From Myxococcota bacterium (lineage in GTDB: Bacteria > Myxococcota > Kuafuiibacteriia > Kuafuiibacteriales > Kuafuiibacteriaceae): a DNA stretch of 64,000 nucleotides. Under the pieces are notes generated by a model. That model had not been told where the DNA came from, did no database searches, and saw only the letters and a list, made by a program, of their open reading frames with translations. Positions 598 to 49,025 of the stretch are shown here, in pieces. The DNA lies in contig DAIQNR010000006.1 of NCBI GenBank assembly GCA_036788295.1, positions 51,523-115,522 on the forward strand. Reading direction: 5' to 3'. A program made the position numbers and the translations under genes. How positions within the stretch are numbered: the stretch's first letter is position 1; every line of letters starts with the position of its first letter.

Positions 598-1071
598 ATG
601 GCGGTGCAGCTGGTGATGTATGCAGAGGAGCACAGGCAGCTCCTCGCGGTCTCGGAGCGTCTGTGCCGGGAGGCCAACGCCCGGGTGGTGTTCATCATCG
701 ACAAGAACGGTCAGCTGCTCGCCTCGGGCGGGGACGTGAGCCGAATGGACAGCACCTCGCTCGCGTCCCTGGTCGCCGGGGAGATCGCCGCGACCGGTGG
801 GCTCGCCCAGCTCATGGGGGAGCGAGAGTTTTCGACCTTGTTTCACGAGGGGGTCAAGGAGCACCTCCACATCTCCATCATCGCGAGCCGGGTGATCCTC
901 GTCGTGATCTTCGACAGTCGGTCGAGCCTCGGGCTCGTTCGGCTGCGGGTCCGAAAGCAGTCCGAGGCGCTCGGACACATCGTCGAGGCGCTCGCTCGGC
1001 GCAGCGCCGAGCGGCCCACCGCGCTCGGCGAGATCACCGACGAAGACATCGACAACCTATTCTCGCTGTGA
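598..1071 (+). CDS. mglB: MglB, roadblock/LC7-domain GTPase-activating protein of MglA
   Basis: 157 aa. QLVMYAEE...VVFIIDKNGQLLASGG...HISIIASRVILVVIFDSRSSLGLVRLR...DIDNLFSL matches M. xanthus MglB almost colinearly. Lies immediately upstream of mglA. Confidence 0.9.
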   Translation: MAVQLVMYAEEHRQLLAVSERLCREANARVVFIIDKNGQLLASGGDVSRMDSTSLASLVAGEIAATGGLAQLMGEREFSTLFHEGVKEHLHISIIASRVILVVIFDSRSSLGLVRLRVRKQSEALGHIVEALARRSAERPTALGEITDEDIDNLFSL

Positions 1072-1078
1072 GGCTCCA

Positions 1079-1666
1079 GTGGCGTTCATCCATTACTCGA
1101 ACCGCGAGATCAACTGCAAAATCGTCTACTACGGCCCCGGCCTCGGAGGAAAGACGACGAACGTCGAGCACATCTACGAGATCACGCCCGAGCAGATCCG
1201 GGGCCGGATGATCCGGCTCGCGACCCAGACCGAGCGAACCCTGTACTTCGACTTTCTGCCGCTCCCGCTCGGGGAGATCCGTGGGTTCAAGGCCCGATTC
1301 TATCTATACACCGTACCAGGGCAGGTGTTCTACCACGCGAGCCGGAAGCTCATCCTCCGGGATGTAGACGGCGTGGTGTTCGTCGCCGACAGCCAGGCCG
1401 ATCGCATGGAGAACAACCAGACGTCGATGGACAGCTTGAAGTCCGATCTCGCCGAATACGGCCTCGACCCGGCCAAGGTCCCGCTGGTCATTCAGTACAA
1501 CAAACGCGATCTGCCCGACGTCGCGCCGGTCGCGGACATGTCTCGGCTCCTCAACACGACCAAGTGCCCCGAGTTCGAGGCGGTGGCGACCACCGGCCAC
1601 GGCGTGCTCGACACCCTGAAGGCGATCGCCCGGCTCGTTTTCCAGGAGCTTCAGCGGGGCCGCTGA
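1079..1666 (+). CDS. mglA: MglA, Ras-like small GTPase (mutual gliding motility protein A)
   Basis: 195 aa. REINCKIVYYGPGLGGKTTN P-loop, LYFDFLPLPLGEIRGFKARFYLYTVPGQVFY, VIQYNKRDLP. About 65% identical to M. xanthus MglA by eye. 8 nt after the mglB stop. Confidence 0.95.
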   Translation: MAFIHYSNREINCKIVYYGPGLGGKTTNVEHIYEITPEQIRGRMIRLATQTERTLYFDFLPLPLGEIRGFKARFYLYTVPGQVFYHASRKLILRDVDGVVFVADSQADRMENNQTSMDSLKSDLAEYGLDPAKVPLVIQYNKRDLPDVAPVADMSRLLNTTKCPEFEAVATTGHGVLDTLKAIARLVFQELQRGR

Positions 1667-1711: not shown

Positions 1712-3154
1712 ATGCAGCGGTCGTTTCCGGCGCTGGTCGCGGCTGCGATGGCGGCCGGGTGCTCGAGCGAAGAGCCAACGCCGAACAACCTGGCCCTGGT
1801 GGTGCCCTCCAGCCCGGTTGGATTCTTGGCCGGCGTGGTGCAGGACGCGGTCTCCGACCAGCCCATCGAGGGGACGAGGGTCGATGTGTTCGGCGGTGGG
1901 GTGGCGGCCGAGGCGCTGACGGGCGCCGACGGCCGGTTCAGCGTCGGCCCGGTGGCGGCGGGGGCAGCGCTGCTCGTGTCCTTGTCCCGCGATGGGTACA
2001 CCCCGCTCCAGCGAACGGCGACCATTCCCTCTTCCTCGGGGGACTTTCCTACGGACAACGGCGCGGTGCTCCTTCAGGCGAAGCTGGTCCCGGCGACGGG
2101 AATTCTCGACGTGGACGTCGCCGACTCCGCCGGCCGCCCGGTGCCGGCAGCCGTGGTCCAGGTCAGCGTGACCGGCGAGGCCGGCGTCTACAGCGCCACC
2201 ACCGATGGGTCGGGCCGCGCCTCGCTGTCGGCGCTCCCGGATGTGTGGCGGGTCGCGCCCCGAGCCTGGGTGGAGCTGTGGGTGACGGTCAGCCCGCCGA
2301 CCCCCGAGTACGGAACGTGGAGCCAGGCCCTCCGCCCGTCCGATCTGGCGGCCGGGGTCCGCCGGCTCACAGCGGTCCTGCCCCGTTCGGACCCGCCTAC
2401 GCCGCTGTCGCTGCTGGCGACGAACGCCGCGGACTCCGGTCTGACCATCGTGGATGCAGAGGAGGGCCTCGTGTTCCTGTTCGACCGGCCGGTGTCGGTG
2501 AACGCGTTTTCGGCGGAGCTGTTCGACGACGCCGCGCAGAGGGTCGGGGTCGAACTCTCGCTCGGGGAGCTTCCGGGCCGGGTAGCGGCGCGCCCGAGCG
2601 AAGCGCGCCCCGGACTTGGCTATTTTCTTCGGCTCCGCAGTCTGGACGGGGCTTGGCGGTGGGAGCGGCCGTTTTTCTTGGCCGATCCGGGCGACCAGCC
2701 GGTGGCGGTGTCCGGTCGCTGGGTCGATGGGACCGGGCAGGGCCAATGGGGCAGCCGCGCCGACCGCCTGATCCTCGAGACCAACCTCCCGATGGGGCGC
2801 AAGGATAGCCCCGGGTTTCGCGCTCGCGTGTGGCTCGAGCTCGATCTCGATGGCTCCGGCCGGGTGGGCGATGGCCCGGGCGAGCGCCCCGGCTCCGGCG
2901 CGCCCGACGCCTACCCACCGGGGCTGCCGCTCGACGGCGAGGCGGTGGTCCCCTCGGGCTTCGTCCCCTCCGGGTTCGGGCGGACCATGGCGGGCCCTGG
3001 GCCTTCGGTCGCAGAACCGCTCACCGATCCCGCGTCGAGGGTCGGGTTCGAAGTTCGTTTCCCCACTTCGGAAAATGGCGGCGAGGCGCTCCGGACGCCG
3101 CCGGGGCGTCCGGTGCCCGCCGCTCTCACCGGCGTCCTGTCCCTGTCCCGCTGA
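1712..3154 (+). CDS. Lipoprotein with carboxypeptidase-regulatory-like (CarbopepD_reg) beta-sandwich domain
   Basis: 480 aa. N-terminal signal with lipobox MAAGC. Segment GVVQDAVSDQPIEGTRVDVFGG...LTGADGRFSVGPVAAGAALLVSLSRDGYTP is typical of CarbopepD_reg_2 domains. Stop overlaps the next start (TGATG). Confidence 0.6.
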   Translation: MQRSFPALVAAAMAAGCSSEEPTPNNLALVVPSSPVGFLAGVVQDAVSDQPIEGTRVDVFGGGVAAEALTGADGRFSVGPVAAGAALLVSLSRDGYTPLQRTATIPSSSGDFPTDNGAVLLQAKLVPATGILDVDVADSAGRPVPAAVVQVSVTGEAGVYSATTDGSGRASLSALPDVWRVAPRAWVELWVTVSPPTPEYGTWSQALRPSDLAAGVRRLTAVLPRSDPPTPLSLLATNAADSGLTIVDAEEGLVFLFDRPVSVNAFSAELFDDAAQRVGVELSLGELPGRVAARPSEARPGLGYFLRLRSLDGAWRWERPFFLADPGDQPVAVSGRWVDGTGQGQWGSRADRLILETNLPMGRKDSPGFRARVWLELDLDGSGRVGDGPGERPGSGAPDAYPPGLPLDGEAVVPSGFVPSGFGRTMAGPGPSVAEPLTDPASRVGFEVRFPTSENGGEALRTPPGRPVPAALTGVLSLSR

Positions 3155-3504: not shown

Positions 3505-3945
3505 TCACCCGGGGGAGCGAACGAGGCGGAAGTCGTCCACGTGCAGCTTCGGCGGATTGGACCGGGAGAGCAGCCCCTCGATGACATAGGTCGCTCCCGG
3601 CTCGAACGGGTGGCACTTCACCTGGTTGAGCTTGCCCCGGCACTGGATCGCTTGTCCTTCCCACACCCCGGCGAGCACCACCGGCCAGCCCTCGACCCCG
3701 GGCACGTCGAGCACGAAGGGCCCTTTGCAGACCTGGCAGTCCCGGCAGTAGGTCATGAACCGACCGTCTTCGGTGTCGAGCCGGCACCGGATCCCGGTGC
3801 GCAGCTTGGCCTTGACGGTCACCTTCTTGCCGAGGTGCGAGTCGAGCTCGGAGACGAGCTTTGCCGCGTCGAGGGGGCCCTCCGCGCACCCCAGCGCGCC
3901 GATGCCCAGAGCAGTCAAGGAGACCAGGATCAGAGTGGTTTTCAT
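3505..3945 (-). CDS. Small Cys-rich lipoprotein (146 aa)
   Basis: MKTTLILVSLTALGIGALGCAEG signal/lipobox, 8 further Cys (YCRDCQVCKG, QCRGKLNQVKC). GGAGG RBS 5 nt upstream. Real start lies inside the 331-aa track ORF. Start ATG overlaps the upstream gene stop (ATGA). Confidence 0.6.
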   Translation of the reverse strand: MKTTLILVSLTALGIGALGCAEGPLDAAKLVSELDSHLGKKVTVKAKLRTGIRCRLDTEDGRFMTYCRDCQVCKGPFVLDVPGVEGWPVVLAGVWEGQAIQCRGKLNQVKCHPFEPGATYVIEGLLSRSNPPKLHVDDFRLVRSPG

Positions 3946-4532
3946 CGGTCCTCCAGCCGCGCGGTCATCAGGCCGGTGCCCCATTCGGGGTTCGTGGTTG
4001 GCCCTTCGACCTCGCATTCGAGAAAAAGGTGTCGGTCTTCGAAGAACAGGTGCGGCCCGACCCGATGCGACCCCGGCGCGGCGAGCGAGGGCGGCAGCCC
4101 GGCGGTGGGCAGGGCAGCCGGGTCGGCCTCCAGCGGTCGGCCATAAAGCGCGAGCACGGTCCGGTCGCTGGCAAAGAACAGGTCGAGCATGGTCGCGTCC
4201 CCGGGGTCGTCGCCTTGGAGCGCCGCTCGCGCCGCCACCTTCGCCGCGAGCAGCCCCTCCGAGGGATGGTGGTGCCCGGATGACGACCCGACCGCCAGCG
4301 CCCAGGCGCTCTTGCGCTCGGCTTGGCGGCCGAGCGCATAGTCGCCGGGCGGCAGCCCCGCCCACCATGGGGCGCGGCCCTGGGCGACCGCGGAGTCGAT
4401 CGGCGGTTGGGGAGGATCCGGCGGCCGCGCCGCGGGGACCGAGCTCGTCGGCGGGGCCGGTCGGGCGCGACTCGAGGGGCCGGCCGCCATCGGCGCGCAT
4501 CCGAGCACGGCGATGAGGACGAAGGCTCTCAC
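3942..4532 (-). CDS. Hypothetical lipoprotein (about 197 aa)
   Basis: GTG start at 4532..4530 overlaps the TGA of the upstream gene (GTGA). Product begins VRAFVLIAVLGCAP (lipobox). Longer in-frame extension rejected because it would overlap the upstream gene by 200 nt. Confidence 0.5.
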   Translation of the reverse strand: MRAFVLIAVLGCAPMAAGPSSRARPAPPTSSVPAARPPDPPQPPIDSAVAQGRAPWWAGLPPGDYALGRQAERKSAWALAVGSSSGHHHPSEGLLAAKVAARAALQGDDPGDATMLDLFFASDRTVLALYGRPLEADPAALPTAGLPPSLAAPGSHRVGPHLFFEDRHLFLECEVEGPTTNPEWGTGLMTARLEDR

Positions 4533-5755
4533 GGCGAGAACCTCATCCGGCCGAACCGGTCCACGGCATGGAAATCCCCCACCCGGGGCGGGGACCAGGC
4601 CGAGTACTCCATCCGCTCTTCGCCGTCGTCGCGAAACGACTCCACCCGAAACGCGTTCATCCGCCACTCGGCCCCCGGCGCCGGGGGCCCGGTCACGCCG
4701 CGAATCCCCGTCCACGGGACCTTCCATTCGCTGGTCCAGCCCCGGTCCGGGCGGCCGTCGTTCAGGGTGCCGTCGACTTTCGTGCCCACGGTCTGGCCAG
4801 CGTCGTACGACCGGTTCATGCCCTGTCTGGGGCCATCGAAGCTCGCGTCGAAGATGACTCCGGTTGGGCTCGCCTGAAGCTCGACGTAGGGCCCCGTGTC
4901 GGGGGCGGCGACCCCGGGCATCAAGAACAGCTCGACCGCCTCGAACTCGTAGATCGGGGCGTCCCGCATCGTGTGCTTCTCCCGCACGTCGCGATCTTCG
5001 GCCTCGAAAGCGACGTAGAGATAATCGTCGTCGTACAACAATCGGAGCCGGGTCGGAAACTGGATGGGGCGGGGCCGCCCGAGCGTGTCCGACATCTCGA
5101 GCACCGGTGCCCGCCCCCAGTCTGGTTCATCGAGGACGCCATCCGGCTCGATCCGGCCCCGGGCCCTGGGGACGAGCACCTCGGGGAGGCCGGGCGGCGG
5201 CAGGCCGGCGACCGGCAACTGTACGGCGAGGACCCGGTCACGGCCGTCCGACGAGCCGGGCCCGGCCTCGACCGTCATGCGGTTTGGCCCATCGAACAAC
5301 CCAACCCACACCGAGTAGAGCCCCCTCGGTGCGTCCGGGGGAATCGAGATCCGGTGCACGTCGAGCCAGCGCTCTTTGGCCTTCATCGCGGAGAACGGAA
5401 CCCTGCCCTCGACCGGGCGGTGGTCCGCCACCGCGTACCGGGTCCCCGCGGCCTCGAGGTGAACGAACACCGATGGGTCGGTCGAAAACGGTCGCTCGAC
5501 CTCGAAGACGTGGGACAGCTCGAGCGCGTCGCCCGCCGACGGACTCGCCGGCACGACGGAGAGCCCCAGGTACCGAATTCGCCCCGGCCCCCCACGCTCC
5601 ACGAAGACGGCCTCGGACCGGTGGCCCGGTTCGGCGGCGGGGGCGAGGAACGCCCGCACGAGCGCAGCCGGTCGAGGCTCCTCTCGACAGCCGCCGAGCG
5701 CGAGCAGCGGGGCCCAAGCCAAGACCACCAGACACCGACCGTTCACACTCTCCAT
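4529..5755 (-). CDS. Lipoprotein with CBM9/DOMON-like carbohydrate-binding domain
   Basis: 408 aa. Signal plus lipobox LALGGC. C-terminal half has the YDDDYLYVAFEAED...ELFLMPG... pattern typical of CBM9-like / DOMON-like domains. Confidence 0.6.
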   Translation of the reverse strand: MESVNGRCLVVLAWAPLLALGGCREEPRPAALVRAFLAPAAEPGHRSEAVFVERGGPGRIRYLGLSVVPASPSAGDALELSHVFEVERPFSTDPSVFVHLEAAGTRYAVADHRPVEGRVPFSAMKAKERWLDVHRISIPPDAPRGLYSVWVGLFDGPNRMTVEAGPGSSDGRDRVLAVQLPVAGLPPPGLPEVLVPRARGRIEPDGVLDEPDWGRAPVLEMSDTLGRPRPIQFPTRLRLLYDDDYLYVAFEAEDRDVREKHTMRDAPIYEFEAVELFLMPGVAAPDTGPYVELQASPTGVIFDASFDGPRQGMNRSYDAGQTVGTKVDGTLNDGRPDRGWTSEWKVPWTGIRGVTGPPAPGAEWRMNAFRVESFRDDGEERMEYSAWSPPRVGDFHAVDRFGRMRFSP

Positions 5756-5861
5756 TCAGCGGCAGGCGCGCCCCCGAGTCCACCCTCACCGCCCTGTCAC
5801 GAAGTTAACGGGCCCGTGCGCCCAGGCACGCTGCGAGACCAGAAACCACCGCAGAGGCGAA

Positions 5862-5877
5862 CGGCACCGCTTTCGCA
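5862..5877 (+). promoter_or_regulatory. Candidate sigma-54 (-24/-12) promoter element cGGCAC-N5-TCGCA upstream of the metzincin gene
   Basis: Sequence cggcaccgctttcgca fits TGGCAC-N5-TTGCA at 9 of the 11 consensus positions. Plus orientation, about 290 bp upstream of the 6165 start, in a 410-bp divergent intergenic region. Confidence 0.25.
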
Positions 5878-6164
5878 GAGGAAGCGATTCACGGCGCTGC
5901 CCGGGATGAAAACCCGGTTTGGCCCCCTGGAAACCCGGACGAGGATCGACCCATCGGACGAACGGCGAAACACAGCGGTCACACTGGACTTCCCGGCCTG
6001 AAACTTGGAAGGTCCCGGCCCGTGCCTAGGTGCGGATCGGCGACAGTCCGAGAGGCTGCTCCGGGGACCCCAGAGCCGAGCGGCTGGGCAAGAACGTGCG
6101 AGCGCGAGGGGCGGTCCCGGGCGGTTTGGGCTGCGAAGAGCGCAAGGAGATACGAGGTCATCGA

Positions 6165-9100
6165 ATGAACGAAGGACGCGGAGTGACGGTGAGGATGAAA
6201 GCGGCCCGGGTGCTGGCCCTGCTAGGCGCCTCGGCGACGGTGACCGCTGGGGTCGCGTCGTGCGTGCCGAGAAACCAGGACATCAACCGGGTCCAACCGG
6301 GGTTTGTCCGAAAGGCCATCTTCCAGACCGACCACGAGTGGTACTACCGCCGGACGGTCGCGCGGTCGGAGACGACCAACCAGTACATCATCGAAGGTCA
6401 CGGCGACATCGCGCTCGACCGCGTGAAATTCGATGTGCAGGAAAACCTGCTCCTGGCCTACCAGCCGTACGAGAACCTCCCCGGGACCACGCTCGCGACC
6501 CTGCCTGGCAACACGAGCTACAAGGGGCCCGTGCTCGCGGCATGGCCGATCACGTCGCACTTCGACATCATTCGAAACTACGATCCCCTCACCGGGAACC
6601 TGACGAACCTCATCGTCGAGAACACGGTCGATAGGCCGTGGCACGAGCGAGAGTTCATCAGGGTCGATTGGCACCACAACCTCGTCGAAGGGTCCATCTT
6701 CGCCGACTACTCCGGCTACTGGTTCCCGGTGAACTACGTCAGCGCCGACACCGGCTTCTGGCGAAACCTCGAGGAGAGCCCAACCGACCCGTTCGCGTCG
6801 CGGTTCAGCGACGACTACGTCGAGGTCAACGAGACCGTCGCCCTCGGCATGGACATCTTCATGTGCGCGTCGATGACCGGCTTCTCGTGGGCCGGCTTCT
6901 CGAACTGCGGATTCGGTGAGGCCCAGCTCCGCCACTCGTTCAAGCGCATCGACGAGCCCTCCGACTACATCCCCCGCGAGTTCCCGGATTCGATCGTGCG
7001 CAAGGGGGCGGACGGGCAGCCGATGTTCGACCCCGAGACCGGCGAGGTGGTCCGCGAACACATCTACAACCGGTTTGGAATCTTCCGGATCACGACCCCG
7101 ACCTACGACCCCGGGTACGGGCTGACCGAATCGGGGCGCCTCTTCCGCGCCATGCTGTTCGACATCTGGGAGCGCCACACCGACGCCCAGGGGACGCCCC
7201 TCCCGTTCGCGGCACGGACAGAGAAGCCGATCGTCTACTACCTGAACCACGACTACCCAAACCGCTACCGCCAGGTCGCTCGCGAAGTCGCCGACGAGTA
7301 CAACCGAGTCTTCACCTCCATGGTCGCCGACCTCAAGGGCGTGGAGTACGACCCGGAGACCAACAACTGCGGCGAGGGGTGGCCGGTGCAGTGCATGTTC
7401 GAGATCCGGGACAACGACTGCAGCGAGCCCAACGTCATCCGCTACGTGAACGACAACCCGGATCTGCTGTTTGCGGTGGAGCGAGCGGTGTGCCGCGACG
7501 GCGAGTCCTGCGGTGTGACGCTCGCGGACCTCTCGAGCGCGATCGGCGTCGGCAACCTCGACCAGGTCTGCACCTCTCTCGAGGCCGCGACCGTCGATCC
7601 CCAGACCGGAAAGTCGGACTTCGATTGGCAGCGCGTCGGTGACCCGCGCTACAACATGCTGGTCTACCTGAACAACCCGCAGCGCTCCCCATGGGGCGGC
7701 TACGGCCCCATGCACGCCGATTCGCGGACCGGACGCACCGTGTCGGCGACGTCCTTCATCCGCGGCCACTACTACGAGATCGGCGCCGCAAACGTGGTGG
7801 ATTACATCGAGCTCATCAACGACGAGAAGAGCATCGACGACATCATCTACGGGCAGGACATCCGGCGTCACGTCCGCGACACGCTGCAGAGGGGCGGATT
7901 CCTCGCCAACATGCAGGCTTCGCCCGGCTTCCTCGACCGGCTCGGGGAGCGGATCAGCGACCGCGGGGTGACGAGGGACGAGCTCCTGCCCCGGGTCGAG
8001 AACACCCGCCACCAGATGAGCCGCCTCGACCGAATCAAGGGGACGAAGTTCGAAGACACCCTCATCACCGAAGCCGACCTCCTGATGGCCTCCAACGGCC
8101 AGTGGGACCCGAGACTCGGACCGGCTCCCGACGACCTGAAGGAGCACGCGTCCCCGCTTGGGCGGCTGACGTTCGGGAACCCCGCCTCGCCGCAGCGCCG
8201 CGCCGCGCAGGCAGCGCTCGGGGAGGCCGGCTACTGCTTTCTCGCCGCCGACTTCGACCCCCACTGGGCCGGAATGGCGCTCGCGCTTCGCGACGCCGAC
8301 CGAGAGGAGCGCTTCCGCGTCGCCTCCGAGCGACTCATCAAGCACGTGATCCTGCACGAGCTCGGCCACAACGTCGGCCTCGCCCACAACTTCGAGGGCA
8401 GCTACGACGCCATGAACTACGAGCCCGAGTTCTGGGACCTCGAGGGACGCACCGCTCAGGAGAAGCTGGAGGGTCGCCAAGATGAGCTCAAGCAAACGAC
8501 CGTGATGGAGTACATGCCGAGCGGCAAGGGCGCTTTCGGCGACTACCTCGGAAAGTACGACGAGGCCGCGCTGCGGTTCGCCTACGGCAACCAGGTCGAA
8601 GTGTTCGACGGCCCCGACGTGGACCCGAACCTTCGCGGCGGGGAGGCGCTCCGGGCGTGGCGGTACCTGAACGACTACCGCTCCATCCCCGACCACCTCT
8701 GCGGCTCGAACGGATGCTCCACGCCGGCCCAGCGGGCCGCCGTGGTGACTCAGCGGAGGTGGGTCGATTTCGATCCCCAGAACCCGCCCCAAAACGAGGT
8801 GCCGTACCTCTTCTGCGACAACTACTTCAACCGCATGACGCCGTTCTGCGCGACGTTCGACTTCGGCGCCAACCTGCGGGAGGTGTTCTCGAACTACTAC
8901 GTGATGTGGTCGCAGTACTTCTTCTTCAACAACTTCGCTCGCGACCGCATCTCGCCGATCTCTTGGAACATCAACTCCGCGCTGACCCCTGCGTTCTTGG
9001 CGATGAACTTCGTCGATACCGTGGCGCAGTACTTCTACTTCCTGAACGTCACGCAGGGAGCGGAGTTCCGGAGGACGGCGCTGCACGAGGACATGGCGAC

Positions 9101-10121
9101 GACGCTGGCCAACGGGCTGAACATGGCGGCCGAGATCATCTCGACTCCGGACCCGATCCGGATGTGCCGCTGGCCCGGGGTGAACCCGCCGACCTTCATC
9201 ACCGCCGACGCGCTGCGCTCGTGCGACAAGTACGCCGAGCTGGGCTCGCCGTACGCGCTTCGCAGCGAGATGATCGAGATCCCGCTCGGTCACGGTCGCC
9301 CGGCGTCGATCGGCCTGACCGAGGACTACGAGACCTGGCAGCTCAGCTTCGTCGGGTCCTACTTCGACAAGACGAACGTGATCTTCCTGCTCGGGATGTC
9401 GAACCCGAGGCTGTTCCGATTCAACTACGATCTCGATCTGAGGAACTACTTCATCAGCCTCTACCGGATCTTCGAGCCCGAGCTGCGCGAGTTCTACCAG
9501 TCGCTGTCGAACCTCGACGTCTGGCTGGGCCTGTTCCGGCAGTCGGTGGCCCAGGACTTCGGGTCGTATTGGTGCCGCGACCCGGCGGTCCCGAACCGGC
9601 CCGACCTCGGGTACTTCGAGCCGAGGCGGATGATCGACCCGGTGCTCAACACGTCGATGCCGGGCCCGACGCAAAACTGCTTGGAGCCGGCACTCATCTA
9701 CCCCCGTTTGCTGGCCAACACCCCGTTCAACGCGATGTTGAGCGCCCACGCGCTCTTCTCCTCCGACTTCGACTCCCAGCTCGACCTGGGGAAGGACATG
9801 AAGATCTTCATGCGGGGTACCGATGACGACTTCACGTCCTGGGCGAACTTCCCGAACTGCGAGGAGGCCGGTGCCAACGAGGACTGCTTCTGCTCGCTCG
9901 TCGATGAGCTGACCGGGGTGGAGTTCCGCTCCATCCAGATCGCGTCCTCCCCGACGCTCGACGGCACCGTCCGGACGAGCCCCGGCTGCAGGCTCATCGA
10001 GCAGGCCCAGCTGGCGCAGAACAACTGGCGGACAGGACCATTCGAAAAAGACAACTGGCGACAGTGGATCGAGCGTCTCGAGTACGCGCGCGACCTCTAC
10101 CGCCTCTTCCAGGACCGCTGA
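6165..10121 (+). CDS. Giant zinc metalloprotease lipoprotein, DUF4953-type metzincin (HELGHNVGLAHNF)
   Basis: 1318 aa from ATG 6165 (AAGGAGA RBS). Alternative ATG at 6195 gives MKAARVLALLGASATVTAGVASC, a lipoprotein signal. HExxHxxGxxHNF zinc-binding motif at VILHELGHNVGLAHNFEGSYD. Track ORF start 6030 is upstream of the RBS. Confidence 0.8.
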   Translation: MNEGRGVTVRMKAARVLALLGASATVTAGVASCVPRNQDINRVQPGFVRKAIFQTDHEWYYRRTVARSETTNQYIIEGHGDIALDRVKFDVQENLLLAYQPYENLPGTTLATLPGNTSYKGPVLAAWPITSHFDIIRNYDPLTGNLTNLIVENTVDRPWHEREFIRVDWHHNLVEGSIFADYSGYWFPVNYVSADTGFWRNLEESPTDPFASRFSDDYVEVNETVALGMDIFMCASMTGFSWAGFSNCGFGEAQLRHSFKRIDEPSDYIPREFPDSIVRKGADGQPMFDPETGEVVREHIYNRFGIFRITTPTYDPGYGLTESGRLFRAMLFDIWERHTDAQGTPLPFAARTEKPIVYYLNHDYPNRYRQVAREVADEYNRVFTSMVADLKGVEYDPETNNCGEGWPVQCMFEIRDNDCSEPNVIRYVNDNPDLLFAVERAVCRDGESCGVTLADLSSAIGVGNLDQVCTSLEAATVDPQTGKSDFDWQRVGDPRYNMLVYLNNPQRSPWGGYGPMHADSRTGRTVSATSFIRGHYYEIGAANVVDYIELINDEKSIDDIIYGQDIRRHVRDTLQRGGFLANMQASPGFLDRLGERISDRGVTRDELLPRVENTRHQMSRLDRIKGTKFEDTLITEADLLMASNGQWDPRLGPAPDDLKEHASPLGRLTFGNPASPQRRAAQAALGEAGYCFLAADFDPHWAGMALALRDADREERFRVASERLIKHVILHELGHNVGLAHNFEGSYDAMNYEPEFWDLEGRTAQEKLEGRQDELKQTTVMEYMPSGKGAFGDYLGKYDEAALRFAYGNQVEVFDGPDVDPNLRGGEALRAWRYLNDYRSIPDHLCGSNGCSTPAQRAAVVTQRRWVDFDPQNPPQNEVPYLFCDNYFNRMTPFCATFDFGANLREVFSNYYVMWSQYFFFNNFARDRISPISWNINSALTPAFLAMNFVDTVAQYFYFLNVTQGAEFRRTALHEDMATTLANGLNMAAEIISTPDPIRMCRWPGVNPPTFITADALRSCDKYAELGSPYALRSEMIEIPLGHGRPASIGLTEDYETWQLSFVGSYFDKTNVIFLLGMSNPRLFRFNYDLDLRNYFISLYRIFEPELREFYQSLSNLDVWLGLFRQSVAQDFGSYWCRDPAVPNRPDLGYFEPRRMIDPVLNTSMPGPTQNCLEPALIYPRLLANTPFNAMLSAHALFSSDFDSQLDLGKDMKIFMRGTDDDFTSWANFPNCEEAGANEDCFCSLVDELTGVEFRSIQIASSPTLDGTVRTSPGCRLIEQAQLAQNNWRTGPFEKDNWRQWIERLEYARDLYRLFQDR

Positions 10122-10144
10122 GAATGGGGAGGAGAGGACGAGAG

Positions 10145-13100
10145 ATGGATATCATGAAGAACATGAAGCTGGCCGCGGTCCTGGCCACCGCCGCTGCGGC
10201 CGTGGGCTGCATCGGGGAGCCGCGGACCATCGACCGAACGCAGCCCAACGCGCTCGACAAGTCGATGTTCGAGGGCATCTGGTACTACCGCGCCGCGGTG
10301 GTGGAGTCCGACCCGGAAGCGGGCGTCATCGAGGGCATCACCTCGAACATGGACAAGCTGCGGTGGCGCATCGAGCGCGACCGGCTGGTGGGGTACCGAA
10401 GCTACGAGTTCGTCCCCTACGCCGAGGGATTGAGCGACGAGGGCGGGGACTTCTTCGGCTCGCCCTCGGTCGCGTACCGGATCACGAGCCACTTCGACAT
10501 CCAGCGTGACTACAACACGACGACCGGGGTCGAGACGAACGTCATCGTCGAGAACACGACCGACCGGCCCTGGTACCAGCGCCAGTACATGAGGGTGGAC
10601 TGGTCGCAGAACCTAGTCGGGCGGCCGACGCGGATCGGGTGGGCGAACTACCCGGACGCCTTCTTCTCTGCGTCGGCGATCACCGGCTATTTCGAGCAAG
10701 GGCACGTCGATACCGACGTCAACCGGCCGTTCATCACCCAGGACTACTTCGACGTCACCAACAACTTCAACGTCGCGCCGAACCCGTTCTACTGCAACAT
10801 GATGTTGCTCTTCAACTCCGTGCCCCGCTGCGGCGCGGCGAACGTGAAGGTCCGGCTCTCCTTCCGCAAGGTGGACACCGACGCGAAGTACGACGCTCTC
10901 TACTACCCCGACAACCTCGAGCTCAGGGACGACGAGGGCAACGCCATCGTCCTCAACAACGACGGACGGACCTGCGGACCGAACTGGAACCCATCGCAGT
11001 GCACGGTCCAGACCGTGGGGATGGACTCCCGGTTCGGCAACTTCCGGATCATGCGGGTCGCGTTCGACAAGGAGCGCAACTTCACCCGAACCGGGCGCAT
11101 CTTCCTCGCCGGCCGGTTCAACATCTGGGAGGACGCGTTCGACGAGAACGGCTCCCTCATCCCGTACGAAGCGCGGGTGCCGCGTCCCATCATCTACTAC
11201 AACAACGTGAAGCATCCGGAGGATCTGTTGGACGCGGCGCAGGAGATGGCGTCGTCTTGGACCGAGCCGTTCGACGAGACGGTGGCCTGGCTCAAGGGGT
11301 ACCGCACGGCCGATGGCCGGCCCGACGTGGAGGCGCTGAGGCAGCGGGACCTCGCCGACAACGGGGGCGCGATGTTCCAGGTCCGCCGAAACGCGTGCAA
11401 CCCGGAGGCGATCGTCGCCTATGCCAACGAAAACGGCCTGGGCTCGGTGGTGCAGCGCGTCGCCGGCTCCCCGGAGCTGGTCACGGTCGGGAACGTCGAG
11501 CAGGTCTGCGCGGCGGTTCAATTCGAAGAGATCCGGCAGGGCAAGACGGTCGATCCCAAGGTGGCGGCACGGGGGCAACAGGCGCTGGCGTTCACCTGGC
11601 AGCGCAAGGGCGACCTTCGGTACAACATCAACAACTACATCAACCAGCTGCAGAACGGCCCCTGGGGCGTGGCCCAGTTCGGACAGGATCCCGAGACCGG
11701 GGAGTTCGTCGCCAACATCGCGAACTACTTCGGCGACGCCGGTGACCGGATCTCGCAGCGGGGCGTGGACCAGTTGCAGTGGCTGAACGGGGATCTCTCG
11801 CAGGAGGAGCTGTTCCGCGGCGACTTCACCCGCAACGAGGTCGTGTCGCGCCGCTCGCTCGAGAACTCGAACATCCGGCTCGGGACCCTGCAGCGGTGGA
11901 TGACTCGCGAAGGGGAGATCCTCGACTCCCTCGGAGGAAACATCGCCCGGGAGTCGACCAGCGGCTCCGACGATGACCGCTTCGCTCGGATGTGGCGCGG
12001 GACCTCGATCGAGCGGGACTTCCTGGTGACCGACGACATCCTGCGCGGGTTTGCCGGTCCCACGCTGTACCAGCCGTTCGACAGCGGCGGCGGGGCTCGT
12101 GGCTCCGTTTCGTCTGGGGTGAGCGGCGTCTCGCCGGGCATGATGAGCGAGGAGGCGCTCGCCGCCGCCTCGCCGGTGAACTGGGGGATGACGCCAGAGA
12201 CCAACCCCTACAACCAGGCCGCCTTCGAGCTCGGCAGCCGTGGATGGGACATGGCCGACTTCTTCGACCCGAACATGGCTGGCTTGGCCCGGTTCGTTCA
12301 GGGCTGGGAGCGGGATCGCATTTGGCAGCACATGCGGCGCGGGCTCTACATCGCCGTCCAGGCCCACGAGGTGGGCCACACCGTGGGTCTTCGCCACAAC
12401 TTCCAGGGCTCGGTGGACGGGCTCAACTTCCGCCCAGAGTTCTGGGAGTCGACCGTGGAGATGGGTGAGGATGGCCAGGAGCGACAGATCGGCTTCTGGA
12501 ACAACCCACCGTCCAAGGACAACCCAAACCGCGGACCCGAGTACAAGTACTCCTCCATCATGGACTACGGCTTCGATCTGTCCCAGCAGGGCTGGCACGG
12601 GCTCGGGTCCTACGACAAGGCGGCGATTCGCTTCCAGTACGGGCAGTTGCTCGAGTTCTGGGACCCATCCAAGATCTCGATTCCCAACCCCCGCAAGTAC
12701 GGGAGCTTCGCGCGCCGCTGTGGCCAGGACAACGACTTCTACGGCTTCCGCGGGCTGATGTTCTGGAACCTGCCCGACCAGATCCCGAGCATCCTGTCGA
12801 GCACCCCGGTGGATCAGACCTCTTGCCTTGGGAACTACGACACGAACCAGTCGTGCGACTCGGAGATGGACGCACTGTTCCGGGAGTTGGTGGTGCGGAT
12901 GGAAGCCAACGCGGTTTCGGTCAACGACCCGTCGCGGTGCACCTTGTTCATCACCGACGTGAATGAGCTCCTCGATTCCGTTCAGGAGCAGGCGCCGGAC
13001 GCGTCGAGGGTCTACGGCGCGCGAATGCTCGGGTCGTTCTCGGATTACCTCGAGCAGCAGGTGGAGGTCCTGACGAACTTCCCGGACTACACCAACCGGG

Positions 13101-14689
13101 CGATCGGGGTGTCGACCCCGGAGCGAGCCGGATCGAAGGGCGGGATCTTCCGGGACAAGCCTCTGCTGGACGCGAACGGGCAGGTGGTGCGGGATGAGCT
13201 CGGCAACGCGCGGTGCGAAGTGCAGGTTCAGCGCGACGCGAACGGCAACCCCGAGCTCGACGGCAACGGCAACCCGATCGAGGTAAGGGACGCGTCCGGC
13301 AACCCGGTCTGCGCCCGCATCACGACCTGGGAGGGTGTGCTCCACCCGGTGCCGTACGAGTACTGCTCGGACCTGTACGCGAACTTCTCGAACCCGTTCT
13401 GCCAGCGGTGGGACACCGGTTGGACGTTCACGGAGGCGGTTCAGAGCCACGCCGACAAGTTCGACCGCGACTACGTGTTCAACAACTTCCGGCGGGATTC
13501 GATGTCTCCCTGGGGCAACGCTGGCGCCTACATGCAGCGGCTCATGGCCCGGACGATGTTCCACATGACGAACGTCTACCGGTACTATCTGTTCACTCGG
13601 GGCTCGGCCTTCCAGGCTCCGAGGTACCTCGACTGGGCGGAGGCGTCGTACCGCGGCCTGAACTTCCTGGAGCGGGTCATTCAGACTCCGGAGCCAGGGA
13701 CGCACTGCCTGGGGGCGGACAACGTATACCGGCTTCAGCTCGACCCGAACCAGACCTGCGAGTCGCCGTACACCGTGGGCCTAGGGCCGGCGGCCGGTCG
13801 CTTCCTCGACAGCTCCTGGACACAGGAGTACCACTACAAGGCCAACCGAATCGGTGACTTCTACACGAAGGTGGCGGCGGTCGCGCAGCTCACGTCGTCG
13901 TCCGGGCGCTTCGTCCGGGACTTCGCCGACGTGTTCGACCGACGGGCGTTCTCGCTCGGGTACCTCCGGGTGTTCCAGGATCCGCTCCTGCAGCGGTTCT
14001 CGGCCCTGATCTCCGGGGATCACACGGGGTACCGGAGCCGGGTGGTGGAGGACGAGACCGGCAGCGGTCGCTACGTTCGGTACACGCCGTTCTTCGACGA
14101 GGCCTTCGACGATGGCCGCTCGGTGCGCCAGTGGCTCGAGCGGGACGCGGATCGGGACGGGGTCGCCGACTTCCCGGAGATCGAGCCGGCGTGGTCGTGG
14201 AGCCTTCAGTACTTCTCCATGGCCTACGCTCTGGCGAACTGGAGCTCGATCAACGACAGCGCCCCCGAGTACTTCCGGATGGCGATGATCGCCATCGAAG
14301 GGACCCCATGGGACCCGATCTACCCCGAAGGAATGACGATTCAGACGTTCACCGACCCGGAGACGCAGATCACCTACCGGGCTCCGGTGATCAGGCCGAT
14401 CTCGGAGGGCAGCATTCTCGATCGGGAGTTCCGGGACTACTACGGGGACGCGACGATGCTGACCGAGGGTCGGTTCCGGTTCTGGGGGCCTGGGGCGGAG
14501 ATTCTGGCCGAGGCGGACAACTTCGTTCGGCTCGAGTACGAGCCGGCGCGGCAGGCATGCGAGAGCACGGGCGACGCCGCTTCGTGCGCTCGGTTCCGGC
14601 GAGCCCGAGCCGGGCTGAACGAGCGGACCGGGTTCATCGACCGGGTTCGAAAGTTCGTCCAGCGGGCGCAGATGACCGTCGAGCTGTGA
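10145..14689 (+). CDS. Giant zinc metalloprotease lipoprotein, paralog of the preceding gene (HEVGHTVGLRHNF)
   Basis: 1514 aa from ATG 10145 (GGGAGGAGAGG RBS). MDIMKNMKLAAVLATAAAAVGC signal/lipobox. Motif AVQAHEVGHTVGLRHNFQGS matches the DUF4953 Met-zincin signature. Colinear similarity to the upstream paralog (WYYR..., HFDIQRDYN..., NVIVENTTDRPW...). Confidence 0.8.
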   Translation: MDIMKNMKLAAVLATAAAAVGCIGEPRTIDRTQPNALDKSMFEGIWYYRAAVVESDPEAGVIEGITSNMDKLRWRIERDRLVGYRSYEFVPYAEGLSDEGGDFFGSPSVAYRITSHFDIQRDYNTTTGVETNVIVENTTDRPWYQRQYMRVDWSQNLVGRPTRIGWANYPDAFFSASAITGYFEQGHVDTDVNRPFITQDYFDVTNNFNVAPNPFYCNMMLLFNSVPRCGAANVKVRLSFRKVDTDAKYDALYYPDNLELRDDEGNAIVLNNDGRTCGPNWNPSQCTVQTVGMDSRFGNFRIMRVAFDKERNFTRTGRIFLAGRFNIWEDAFDENGSLIPYEARVPRPIIYYNNVKHPEDLLDAAQEMASSWTEPFDETVAWLKGYRTADGRPDVEALRQRDLADNGGAMFQVRRNACNPEAIVAYANENGLGSVVQRVAGSPELVTVGNVEQVCAAVQFEEIRQGKTVDPKVAARGQQALAFTWQRKGDLRYNINNYINQLQNGPWGVAQFGQDPETGEFVANIANYFGDAGDRISQRGVDQLQWLNGDLSQEELFRGDFTRNEVVSRRSLENSNIRLGTLQRWMTREGEILDSLGGNIARESTSGSDDDRFARMWRGTSIERDFLVTDDILRGFAGPTLYQPFDSGGGARGSVSSGVSGVSPGMMSEEALAAASPVNWGMTPETNPYNQAAFELGSRGWDMADFFDPNMAGLARFVQGWERDRIWQHMRRGLYIAVQAHEVGHTVGLRHNFQGSVDGLNFRPEFWESTVEMGEDGQERQIGFWNNPPSKDNPNRGPEYKYSSIMDYGFDLSQQGWHGLGSYDKAAIRFQYGQLLEFWDPSKISIPNPRKYGSFARRCGQDNDFYGFRGLMFWNLPDQIPSILSSTPVDQTSCLGNYDTNQSCDSEMDALFRELVVRMEANAVSVNDPSRCTLFITDVNELLDSVQEQAPDASRVYGARMLGSFSDYLEQQVEVLTNFPDYTNRAIGVSTPERAGSKGGIFRDKPLLDANGQVVRDELGNARCEVQVQRDANGNPELDGNGNPIEVRDASGNPVCARITTWEGVLHPVPYEYCSDLYANFSNPFCQRWDTGWTFTEAVQSHADKFDRDYVFNNFRRDSMSPWGNAGAYMQRLMARTMFHMTNVYRYYLFTRGSAFQAPRYLDWAEASYRGLNFLERVIQTPEPGTHCLGADNVYRLQLDPNQTCESPYTVGLGPAAGRFLDSSWTQEYHYKANRIGDFYTKVAAVAQLTSSSGRFVRDFADVFDRRAFSLGYLRVFQDPLLQRFSALISGDHTGYRSRVVEDETGSGRYVRYTPFFDEAFDDGRSVRQWLERDADRDGVADFPEIEPAWSWSLQYFSMAYALANWSSINDSAPEYFRMAMIAIEGTPWDPIYPEGMTIQTFTDPETQITYRAPVIRPISEGSILDREFRDYYGDATMLTEGRFRFWGPGAEILAEADNFVRLEYEPARQACESTGDAASCARFRRARAGLNERTGFIDRVRKFVQRAQMTVEL

Positions 14690-24350: not shown

Positions 24351-25364
24351 CTAGCCCCGGCCGCCGGGACGCACGAGCCGGCGCCACCACGGCGTGGCCC
24401 CCGGTGAAGGGCGAGGGACGGCGACGGTCGGCTCGGGCCGGGCCCTGCGTAGGCGGCTGGTCTCCTCCGCGATCCGGCCCACCGCCGCTTCCCATGCGTA
24501 CCCCGAGGTCTTCGGCCCGACCGGGCCGAGCGCCCGGCGCAACACCCGCAGCGCAGAGCGCAACTCATCGGCGGTCGCGAACCGGGCGCCGATGTCCGGG
24601 TCGAGCGCCTTCGCGAGGGTTCGGTCCGCTTCTCCGGGGAGCGTCGGGTCGATCTGGCTTGGAGCCGGGATGCCGCGCAGCATCTCCACCGCGACCGCCA
24701 TCGCGCTTCGCGCGGTGAACGGGAGGCGGCCGGTGAGGCCCCGGTACACTACGACCGCGACCGACCACAGGTCGGCTCTGCCGTCCACCGGGGAGCCGGC
24801 GAGCGCCTCGGGGCTCATGAAGCTCGGGGTCCCGATGAGCGCGCCGGCCTCGGTCAGCGGCGTGTGCTCCATCCCGACCGGCCGAACGATGCCGAAGTCG
24901 AGCAGCTTCACCCGCCCCGGGGTCAGGAAGATGTTTGCGGGCTTCACGTCCCGGTGCACGAACCCCCGGGCGTGGGCGGCGCCGAGTGCGTCGAGCACCT
25001 CGATCGCGACCTCGAGCACCCGCTCCCTCGGCATGCTCCCGCCGCTGAACGCTTGGGCCAAGTCTTCGCCTTCGAGCCGCTCGAACACCACGAACGGTTG
25101 GCCATCGGCGTCGAGCCCGGCGTCGAGCACGTCCACGATGCCCGGGTGCCCGAGCGCCCCGACGGCCTGGGCCTCACGAAGAAAGCGGCGCCGGATCGCG
25201 TCCACCGAGGCGAACTGGGGGTGCAGGCGCTTGAGCGCAACCCGTCTTCCGGTCACTCGGTGCACCGCCCCGTACACCGCCCCCATGCCGCCGCTCCCGA
25301 GCAGCTCTACGAGCAGGTACCGGCCGCCGACCTCCTGCCCGAGCTTCGACATCAACTCCGTCAT
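24351..25364 (-). CDS. Ser/Thr protein kinase (Hanks-type), 337 aa
   Basis: Start MTELMSKLGQEVGGRYLLVELLGSGGMGAVYGA...VALKRL...HRDVKPANIFL...DFGI...GTPSFMSPE. ATG 25364 overlaps the TGA of the upstream HD gene (ATGA). The track ORF N-terminal 224 aa is an Arg-rich spurious extension overlapping the HD gene. Confidence 0.85.
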   Translation of the reverse strand: MTELMSKLGQEVGGRYLLVELLGSGGMGAVYGAVHRVTGRRVALKRLHPQFASVDAIRRRFLREAQAVGALGHPGIVDVLDAGLDADGQPFVVFERLEGEDLAQAFSGGSMPRERVLEVAIEVLDALGAAHARGFVHRDVKPANIFLTPGRVKLLDFGIVRPVGMEHTPLTEAGALIGTPSFMSPEALAGSPVDGRADLWSVAVVVYRGLTGRLPFTARSAMAVAVEMLRGIPAPSQIDPTLPGEADRTLAKALDPDIGARFATADELRSALRVLRRALGPVGPKTSGYAWEAAVGRIAEETSRLRRARPEPTVAVPRPSPGATPWWRRLVRPGGRG

Positions 25365-26677
25365 CCCAGCTCCTCGAGCGCCTCGGTTGCGATGGTGGCC
25401 ATGACCGGAGGCAGCGGCAAGCGCAAGCTGGGCAGGCCAGGGCGATCGGAGAGCTCGGATAGGTCGAGCTCGAGGCCTTCTCGGAGCCTTCCTCGGCCCT
25501 GATCTTCCACCACCACGACCGGGTGAAAGGCGAGCTCCGGGTGGGGCTCGATCACACGAACCCGCTCGCCGGTGCTCAGCTCGGCCTCGGTGTCGGCGGG
25601 GACCGCATCCACCAGCCGAGCCAGCCGCTCGAGCAGGTAGGGGTTCAATCCGACCGCCCGCCGCTGAAGCCACGCGATCGAGGCGCCGGCGCTGGATCGA
25701 TGGTGCAGAGCCAAGGTCCGAAGTCCATCGAACTGATCGGCGAGCTTGGTCAGCTCGACCGCGAGCAGGCCCGGAGCGCCGTCCTGCAGCGGCGTGTGGT
25801 GACCGAAGGCGACGACGGCGCCGAGCCGAGCGCCGGCTTCGAGCAGGAGGCGACCCCCTTCGAGCGTGTGGCGGTCGAGCCAGGCCCGCTCCGACGGGGT
25901 GAGCGGGGCCTGCTTGTCGAGAATCGCCGGCGGGATCCGGGTCTTTCCGAGGTCGTGGGTCAACCCGGCGGTCACGAGGCTCTGCACATCGTCTTCGTCG
26001 AGCCCGAGCGTCCGCGCCTGTGCGCCGACCAAGCAAGCGACATTGACCGAGTGGACGAGCTGCCGGTCGTCCCGATCCTTGAGCGCAGCGAGCGCACAGA
26101 GCGGCAACTCAGGTTTCAGCAAGTTGTCCATCAGCGCCTGCGCGAGCCGGGAGAACGCAATCTCGCTGGGGGGCTTGCCGGCGCCGCTCGCCGCGAAGAG
26201 GCTCCCGAGCTCCCGGGTCGCCTGCCGGTAGACCGAACGAAAGTCCTGTGCGGTGGCCCGCTCGTCGAGCTGCAGGTGCCGAAGCTGGATGCGCTCGACA
26301 CCTCTGCGCCCGAGCCACTGCGAAGATGACTCTCCGGCCAGCTCCGCCTCCGTCGCCGACAGGAGGTCGAGCAGCACCTCGACCTCGGAACGCTCGACCC
26401 CGGGAGCGAACGCGACCACTTCGAGCCCGAGCGCGAGCAGCCGCTCGGCGAGCCGGCGGGCGGCCACCGGAGGCTTCGGCAGCAGCACCCCGTCCACCGC
26501 GAGATGGTCGGCCAGCACCCCGATCGTCAACTGCGGTCTGCCGTCGAGGCATCGCCGGATGGCGGCGTGCACGGAGGCCGCGGCCCGGCGGGCGGCCTCG
26601 GCGCCCGGGGCATAGATGCGACGGCTGCGCCACGCCCCAGCGAGCAGGAGGCCGGCGTCGCGGTGGGTCTCATCCAT
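25361..26677 (-). CDS. HD-domain protein related to HD-GYP phosphodiesterases, with degenerate GYP motif
   Basis: 438 aa. HSVNVACL...LTHDLGK (HD), LTPSERAWLDRHTLEGGRLL, FGHHTPLQDGAPG (HHExxDGxGYP degraded to HHTPLQDGAPG). Long N-terminal helical region. Start overlaps the upstream gene end by 8 nt. Confidence 0.7.
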   Translation of the reverse strand: MDETHRDAGLLLAGAWRSRRIYAPGAEAARRAAASVHAAIRRCLDGRPQLTIGVLADHLAVDGVLLPKPPVAARRLAERLLALGLEVVAFAPGVERSEVEVLLDLLSATEAELAGESSSQWLGRRGVERIQLRHLQLDERATAQDFRSVYRQATRELGSLFAASGAGKPPSEIAFSRLAQALMDNLLKPELPLCALAALKDRDDRQLVHSVNVACLVGAQARTLGLDEDDVQSLVTAGLTHDLGKTRIPPAILDKQAPLTPSERAWLDRHTLEGGRLLLEAGARLGAVVAFGHHTPLQDGAPGLLAVELTKLADQFDGLRTLALHHRSSAGASIAWLQRRAVGLNPYLLERLARLVDAVPADTEAELSTGERVRVIEPHPELAFHPVVVVEDQGRGRLREGLELDLSELSDRPGLPSLRLPLPPVMATIATEALEELG

Positions 26678-48845: not shown

Positions 48846-49025
48846 GAGTTCTCCCCTTGGAGGCTCGGATGAAAGGGGGACGGCCTCCAACCCGACAGAA
48901 TCGCCAAGCGGGCCCGCTGCGCAAGCCGCATTCCGCGACAATTGACCACGGAGCGCTGATCTTCGCACTCACGCCGCCCGACCGCCGCCGGCGGGCGCGG
49001 GTTTCTGCTCGGTCACCACTACGTG

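Follow-up and report, generated by a model that had tools for sequence, protein, structure and literature searches.

Genes A and B lie next to each other in a 64,000-nucleotide stretch of a Myxococcota genome (contig DAIQNR010000006.1, positions 51,523 to 115,522; here called the window). They encode giant proteins with a metzincin-type zinc site and a predicted lipid anchor. With a probability of roughly 60%, A and B are anciently duplicated, co-transcribed giant metzincin lipoproteins, anchored in the outer membrane as endopeptidases that would digest extracellular or prey protein. Judged by motif, both are metzincins, but neither fits the classical DUF5117-DUF4953 architecture in full. They belong, as far as sequence conservation tells, to a separate family in which a length of about 1200–1650 amino acids (aa) is normal. 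The coordinates of all features are given in Table 1.

The two giant open reading frames (ORFs) described in an earlier note on this DNA, 1318 and 1514 aa long and 23 nucleotides (nt) apart, are intact. The full ORF spans on the forward strand are 6030–10121 (A) and 10064–14689 (B), and the two lengths are counted from the ATG starts. An alternative ATG for A is present at 6195, with a product starting MKAARV. The identical two gene calls are found in the public assembly GCA_964504175.1 (contig CAZDDJ010000008.1). The GC content at third codon positions (GC3) is 0.91 for A and 0.89 for B, which supports both frames as real genes; by the same measure, the long antisense ORFs across A and B were dismissed as the usual shadows of high-GC coding sequence. 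Since the short spacer between the genes shows no terminator in a terminator scan, co-transcription of A and B is probable. Otherwise, scans for promoters, terminators, Rfam families, and tRNAs were uninformative.

The overall GC content of A and B (0.65 over positions 6001–14000) is below that of the flanks (0.68–0.71), while their GC3 is the highest locally. The low GC stems from codon positions 1 and 2, that is, from amino-acid composition. A foreign origin of the region, which the lower GC would suggest, was ruled out because GC3 tops its neighbourhood.

Both proteins contain the extended metzincin motif HExxHxxGxxH/D, with three histidines to bind zinc, a glutamate as general base, and the glycine of the turn. 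Among 118 aligned homologues, H731, E732, H735, H741, N742, M781, and Y783 (A numbering) are invariant, and the motif glycine G738 is conserved in at least 90%. The pattern HExxHxxGxxH-NF is present in 341 of 351 family proteins. At the sequence level, the candidate Met-turn methionine stands 40 residues (A) or 55 residues (B) past the third histidine. In astacins and serralysins, Met-x-Tyr is the position of the fifth zinc ligand (the "Tyr switch"). The match of A and B to this arrangement suggests that their zinc may be five-coordinate. The profile of the 118 sequences aligns at the zinc helix with reprolysins, matrix metalloproteinases (MMPs), and serralysins in the PDB, weakly (E 0.003–0.05). 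Sequence searches of the PDB with A or B alone returned no relative, and an NCBIfam scan returned nothing meaningful.

The earlier note had described A and B as metzincins of the DUF4953/DUF5117 type with about 500 additional residues, 50–70% longer than their kin. The zinc site and the Met-turn stand, as invariant features of the homologues; the remainder of this description does not. A search with hidden Markov models (HMMs), the check on which the note had staked the claim, does place A and B in Pfam DUF4953 (PF16313, "Met-zincin"), just above the cut-off: 25.8 bits for A and 26.6 bits for B against 24.2. DUF4953 is also the sole Pfam family above threshold on either protein, and this is an argument for regarding them as ordinary secreted proteases of that type to which some 500 residues and a lipid anchor were added. 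However, the match covers positions 10–96 (A) and 16–35 (B) of the 316-position model, from the zinc helix through the Met-turn, thus about a quarter of it or less. Twelve members were scanned, namely A, B, and 10 others from Myxococcota, Vibrio, Ferrimonas, and Bdellovibrio. The longest alignment among them spans positions 17–166, short of the whole domain. DUF5117 and DUF5118 are missing in all 12 (no Pfam match at E ≤ 0.1 in A and B, or at E ≤ 0.01 in the other 10). The classical DUF4953 proteins with DUF5117/DUF5118, known here from the note's description (800–900 aa) and with no member retrieved for comparison, share with A and B the zinc helix HExxHxxGLxHNF through the Met-turn, and this shared segment accounts for the automated name "zinc-dependent metalloprotease" given to relatives. 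They differ in that only model positions of about 3–166 of 316 ever align to the A/B family, and in that the N-terminal domain, the C-terminal domain, and two insertions are exclusive to the latter.

The length of A and B is the norm of their own family. A search with A returned 207 proteins. Among the 120 matches listed, nearly all are 1200–1520 aa long and come from metagenome-assembled genomes of Myxococcota or "Deltaproteobacteria"; where names are given, they read "zinc-dependent metalloprotease" or "hypothetical". The search with B returned a parallel set of orthologues of 1424–1590 aa. A profile built from 12 diverse family members was run against 1.84 billion representatives of clusters at 50% identity. 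It matched 5108 proteins at E ≤ 1e-3, of which 2610 remained at E ≤ 1e-10 and 1267 at the stricter E ≤ 1e-30. Among the best 150 representatives, lengths range from 940 to 1667 aa, nearly all above 1200, and most of these proteins match the profile from end to end. In the family alignment, conservation extends along the entire chain of A. Because of this conservation and the like length of relatives, 1300–1500 aa can be regarded as normal for the family and not as an extension; the whole 1300-aa architecture is conserved, with nothing "extra", contrary to what the DUF4953-plus-addition explanation implies. Invariant residues in the 118 sequences include K50, G78, D134, W159, and R162 in the N-terminal domain of A, G492, D493, R495, G512, and G523, then D748, N751, and W757, and the C884/C895 pair, D899, and G901 in the C-terminal domain. 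The family is found in Myxococcota, and giant lipoprotein relatives occur in Bdellovibrionota, Oligoflexia, and Gammaproteobacteria of the Vibrio/Aeromonas type.

A and B also differ from the better known metzincins. Astacins (M12A) and serralysins (M10B) have in common with them the metzincin motif and the Met-x-Tyr of the Met-turn, and serralysins are among the weak profile matches. However, A and B have Asn, and not Glu or Pro, after the third histidine, are about six times larger, are predicted to be lipid-anchored, and show no significant sequence or fold match. Reprolysins/adamalysins (M12B) give the best of the weak PDB profile matches (E 0.003), which span the strand before the active-site helix, and one family member, P0113, reaches the cut-off of Reprolysin_5. 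A and B are under every reprolysin cut-off, lack Asp after the third histidine, and have another architecture. StcE/TagA (M66) and SslE/AcfD (M60-like) are very large lipoprotein zinc proteases of Gammaproteobacteria acting extracellularly. Their likeness to A and B is in the general idea, an analogy and not membership. Peptidase_M66 scores 12.1 bits on A (E 0.094) against a cut-off of 20.6 and has no match on B, and Peptidase_M60 of Pfam matches neither protein. One homologue carries the NCBI name "M66 family".

AlphaFold2 models of A were built with a 55-sequence alignment. The model of residues 33–870 (m825b4eb31b20) has a predicted local distance difference test score (pLDDT) of 84.2 and a predicted template-modelling score (pTM) of 0.82; for residues 700–1318 (md108d550a3cd), they are 90.3 and 0.91. 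The modelled N-terminal domain contains the conserved block SHFDIxRxY...ENTxDRPW...RVDW. The catalytic region is predicted to begin with the strand PIVYY (356–360) and a helix (366–391), followed by a Cys-rich helical insertion (about 420–490), strands at 497–533, a second helical insertion (about 534–712, partly of low confidence), the active-site helix (713–736), and the Met-turn at 781. The C-terminal domain starts with the conserved EVPYxFC...PxC...DxG and ends in a long helical hairpin. Neither terminal domain has a relative in Pfam or the PDB. Foldseek searches of the PDB with both models found nothing at E ≤ 1e-3, the best value for the C-terminal model being 1.8. Matches to barrels like that of green fluorescent protein and nidogen G2 (probability below 0.2) and to the N-domain of angiotensin-converting enzyme (0.06) were treated as noise. 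Most of the surplus length of B comes from an insertion, specific to B, that separates the catalytic from the C-terminal domain. It includes a B-only loop rich in Asp, Asn, and Gly, DANGNPELDGNGNPIEVRDASGNPV, between C1024 and C1056 (window 13157–13324, B aa 1005–1060), which may bind calcium. The L003 counterpart of the loop is variable and acidic.

Each protein starts with a signal peptide ending in a lipobox with its cysteine, the lipid-anchor signal that the earlier note had pointed out. Cys33 of A is conserved in at least 90% of the aligned homologues, and a recognisable lipobox is present in 287 of 351 family proteins. A and B contain 22 and 19 conserved cysteines, respectively, which is consistent with extracytoplasmic proteins. 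In myxobacteria, Lys at position +2 is linked to inner-membrane retention of lipoproteins. The residue following Cys33 of A is Val, and in the family Lys directly follows the lipobox cysteine in one protein only. Because Lys is not found at +2, we infer that the predicted lipoproteins A and B are transferred to the outer membrane.

A and B are colinear paralogues. BLASTP aligns 866 aa of them at 29% identity (E 9e-86) and, in the C-terminal part, a further 242 aa at 26%. A neighbour-joining tree (72 sequences, 68 from the family and four outgroups; 1084 columns) separates an A-orthologue clade (L001, L003, L009, L010, L006, L035, L011, L012, and L013) from a B-orthologue clade (the same loci except L010). 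The B clade adjoins a single-copy group including Vulgatibacter. In the eight loci with both, the order is always A then B. The tandem duplication suggested in the earlier note is thus borne out by the paralogy, but not as a recent event, the two clades spanning nine and eight lineages. An old and stably retained duplication argues for a division of labour or a hetero-complex over recent amplification. A second, independent ancient tandem duplication, with both copies retained in the same order, is seen in L037, L043, L045, L046, L047, L048, and L051.

It can be asked whether one of the paralogues, or both, might be a non-catalytic scaffold or adhesin with a fossil zinc motif. In favour of this, about 1000 of 1300 residues are outside the canonical catalytic core and are conserved as well as the core. 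However, both proteins retain all catalytic residues, which are invariant throughout the family, and the orthologues of A and B diverge at an equal rate (55% and 54% identity to L003), which makes this explanation very improbable.

The preferred reading, that A and B are outer-membrane endopeptidases acting on external protein, gains from the genes beside their relatives. All-against-all clustering of the ORFs in 50 loci, extended by HMM, revealed a conserved neighbour of the giant metzincin gene, far more widespread than the lipoprotein trio described below: a protein of 350–490 aa, whose gene lies immediately upstream in the same orientation. The protein has an ordinary (Sec) signal peptide, shows an alternating pattern of residues, and carries an aromatic residue at the C-terminus; on these grounds, it is predicted to be an outer-membrane beta-barrel. 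The HMM detects versions of 260–306 aa at the equivalent position, with gaps of 0–60 nt, beside giant lipoprotein relatives. The shorter versions are carried by Vibrio, Photobacterium, Aeromonas, Ferrimonas, Motilimonas, Bdellovibrionota, and Oligoflexia, and those of 350–490 aa by Myxococcota. The barrel gene adjoins the protease gene in about 51 of 83 distinct loci, which span three phyla and come from Myxococcota, Bdellovibrionota, Oligoflexia, and Gammaproteobacteria. The barrel has no match in Pfam, NCBIfam, or the PDB, DUF560/Slam and TonB-dependent receptors included. A database search with the barrel profile, limited by its word index, gave only 8 matches.

In two species of Vibrio, in Photobacterium, and in Motilimonas, an ATP-binding cassette (ABC) importer of the Opp/Dpp type adjoins the barrel-metzincin cassette. 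The importer has two permeases and a family-5 binding protein; its two ATPases carry oligo_HPY, the oligopeptide C-terminal domain. Record titles place the metzincin family mainly in predatory or strongly proteolytic lineages. The barrel partner, the Vibrionaceae peptide importer, and these lineages are the reasons for proposing that A and B digest external protein to importable peptides. The Slam/TbpB-type and SusC/SusD-type pairs likewise combine an outer-membrane barrel with a surface lipoprotein, and the relatives of A and B have their lipoprotein gene joined directly to a dedicated gene for a predicted outer-membrane barrel. The two cases differ in that the relatives' barrel matches no known family and that it is missing from the A/B window.

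The main rival explanation is envelope housekeeping. A and B would then be outer-membrane lipoproteases facing the periplasm, which process or quality-control outer-membrane proteins like BepA, LoiP, and YcaL, with the barrel as substrate or platform. The tight coupling of barrel and protease genes would suit this as well, and its best support is the Vulgatibacter cassette, located just upstream of Omp85/TamB genes. Many Myxococcota have a single copy, and the A/B locus here lies amid housekeeping genes. However, the adjacency to TamAB was seen at a single locus, the family has a patchy distribution beyond Myxococcota and Bdellovibrionota, and duplications have been repeatedly retained. The proteins of the A/B family are far larger than the known envelope-maintenance proteases, and the importer genes next to the cassette in Vibrionaceae favour a nutritional role. 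Housekeeping is thus considered rather unlikely.

Several facts weigh against digestion of external protein by A and B. Two HMMs did not find the barrel anywhere in the window; their best E values were 0.35 and 0.0024, and the latter match is an unrelated TonB-dependent receptor. The peptide importer is absent from the window, too. The relatives that provide the barrel and importer evidence align with the family profile in its catalytic region alone, at about 20–39% identity. The apparent enrichment in predators was read from record titles. A literature search on DUF4953, DUF5117, PF16313, and metzincin with lipoprotein and Myxococcus found no characterised family member. Foldseek with the catalytic-domain model of A recovered no metzincin structures, so that the assignment of the fold depends on the motifs, the weak profile matches, and the order of secondary-structure elements.

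The loci of the closest relatives, L003, L009, and L089, also lack the barrel gene. In L010 and the P0371 contig, it sits between the operon of the CBM9-like protein described below and A. It follows that the operon ancestral to the A/B clade read barrel-A-B, and that the sub-lineage of the window later lost the barrel from the locus. Both of these barrel-bearing loci lack the 196-aa gene of the CBM9-like operon. In the six loci considered, either this Pro-rich gene or the barrel gene is present and never both, a sample too small to interpret.

If A and B are digestive endopeptidases, they would be exported through Sec, lipidated at Cys33 (A) and Cys22 (B), and transferred to the outer membrane in a Lol-dependent manner. 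There they would act as membrane-anchored endopeptidases, with zinc held by three histidines, water, and probably Tyr783 (A) or Tyr808 (B). The flanking domains might shape or gate access to the cleft, and extracellular or prey protein would be broken into peptides. The specificities of the paralogues might complement each other, or the two proteins might join in a hetero-complex. The barrel of most relatives would probably serve to dock the protease, to bring it to the cell surface, or to import its products. The window lineage has lost the barrel from the locus and keeps only a divergent trio of small lipoproteins.

A broader idea can be advanced tentatively, and is doubtful at present. The giant metzincin lipoprotein and the barrel might constitute an undescribed two-component outer-membrane system for display or peptide uptake, ancestral to Myxococcota, Bdellovibrionota/Oligoflexia, and marine Gammaproteobacteria. 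It would serve the digestion of prey or environmental protein and include two domains of new fold. The window lineage would be derived, with the barrel dropped or relocated, and would work with small lipoproteins.

The trio is the divergent three-gene lipoprotein operon that the earlier note had recognised, and this part of the note is sound. All three genes have a lipobox, neighbouring genes overlap by 4 nt, and the 408-aa protein has a CBM9_1 match. The block of the 146-aa, 196-aa, and CBM9-like genes, divergent from A and B, recurs in L003 (55% identity), L009, and L089 (66%), while other neighbours vary. The CBM9-like gene is syntenic in L003, L009, L010, L089, and the P0371 contig. Synteny of the trio as such is restricted to close relatives (identity of 50% or more), and a BLAST comparison of its lipoproteins with the small genes beside the more distant cassettes of L006, L007, and L008 found no relatives.

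The note had also proposed a surface machine for glycan processing or motility, composed of the DUF4953-type proteases and the CBM9-like operon. The divergent CBM9_1 gene and its arrangement, conserved in L003, L009, L010, and L089, speak for this. However, neither a glycoside hydrolase nor another carbohydrate-active domain was found in A or B, and the trio is limited to close relatives. The sole link to motility is an unrelated Roadblock/GTPase pair 4.5 kb upstream. The glycan or motility role is not upheld, and the explanation of A and B as enlarged ordinary DUF4953 proteases in such a machine is, as a whole, unlikely.

The pair mentioned above is at window 598–1666, a Roadblock/LC7 protein and a small Arf-like GTPase (MglB/MglA-like), followed at 1712–3154 by a 480-aa protein with a CarboxypepD_reg domain. 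A Roadblock/GTPase pair is located upstream of the block in L089, too. On the reverse strand, positions 47223–48968 encode a 581-aa glutaminase that carries an EF-hand_14 domain at its N-terminus and ankyrin repeats at its C-terminus. This layout, which we take to be that of the animal kidney-type glutaminase, is presumably unusual in a bacterium. Two consecutive ORFs of 682 and 627 aa without Pfam match (26670–30577, reverse strand) lie in the most GC-rich stretch of the window (73–75%), and a gene for an HD-domain protein (25361–26677) adjoins them.

Table 1. Features of the A/B locus and of related loci. Positions refer to the window, except where a locus is named.
Feature	Position	Strand	Basis
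146-aa Cys-rich lipoprotein (predicted), no known family	3505..3945	-	ORF, lipobox, no Pfam match
196-aa Pro-rich lipoprotein (predicted), no known family	3942..4532	-	ORF, lipobox, no Pfam match
408-aa lipoprotein (predicted), C-terminal CBM9_1/DOMON-like domain	4529..5755	-	CBM9_1 E 1.3e-8, above Pfam cut-off
Divergent intergenic region, trio to A; site of the barrel in L010 and the P0371 contig	5756..6164		no barrel-gene remnant
Gene A, 1318-aa giant metzincin lipoprotein (predicted)	6165..10121	+	ORF, gene call, exact database match P0001
A signal peptide and lipobox GVAS-C33 (predicted); Cys33 codon 6261–6263	6165..6263	+	sequence, homologue conservation
A N-terminal beta-rich domain with very long strands (modelled), aa 34 to about 345	6264..7199	+	AlphaFold model, pLDDT mostly 80–97, conservation
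A catalytic metzincin region (modelled), aa about 350–830	7212..8654	+	modelled secondary structure, weak reprolysin/MMP/serralysin profile matches at zinc helix
A zinc-binding motif HELGHNVGLAHNF, aa 731–743	8355..8393	+	sequence; H731, E732, G734, H735, H741, N742 invariant
A Met-turn candidate M781-E-Y783, astacin/serralysin-like Met-x-Tyr	8505..8513	+	M781, Y783 invariant in 118 sequences
A C-terminal alpha/beta domain (modelled), aa about 870–1318	8772..10118	+	AlphaFold model, invariant C884, C895, D899, G901
A-B spacer, 23 nt, ribosome-binding site GGAGGAG	10122..10144	+	sequence, terminator scan
Gene B, 1514-aa paralogue of A, giant metzincin lipoprotein (predicted)	10145..14689	+	ORF, gene call, exact database match P0263
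B signal peptide and lipobox AAVG-C22 (predicted); Cys22 codon 10208–10210	10145..10210	+	sequence
B zinc-binding motif HEVGHTVGLRHNF, aa 741–753	12365..12403	+	sequence
B Met-turn candidate M806-D-Y808	12560..12568	+	A/B alignment, sequence
B-specific insertion between catalytic and C-terminal domains, aa about 857–1068	12713..13348	+	eight-sequence alignment
Predicted barrel genes, examples (about 45 further loci)	L006:8730-9992, L010:2285-3757, L070:7389-8246, L058:8126-8965, L053:8231-9052		
Peptide importer beside the cassette	L070:1109-6829, L086:1519-5479, L074:7807-13809, L066:13175-20892		

The catalytic chemistry of A and B is of the familiar metzincin kind. However, they belong to a very large family of more than 1200 clusters (at 50% identity) of 1300–1500-aa envelope proteins with no full-length family model or characterised member, in which about three quarters of the chain, some 1000 residues per protein, are without structural relative. 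The conserved barrel partner hints at an undescribed outer-membrane system. The concentration in predators and proteolytic marine bacteria, the retained tandem pairs, and the linkage to barrel and importer make the family a plausible, so far unrecognised component of extracellular protein digestion. Once the structure or activity of any one member is known, for example from a cultured Vibrio, Bdellovibrio, or Vulgatibacter, thousands of genes could be annotated.

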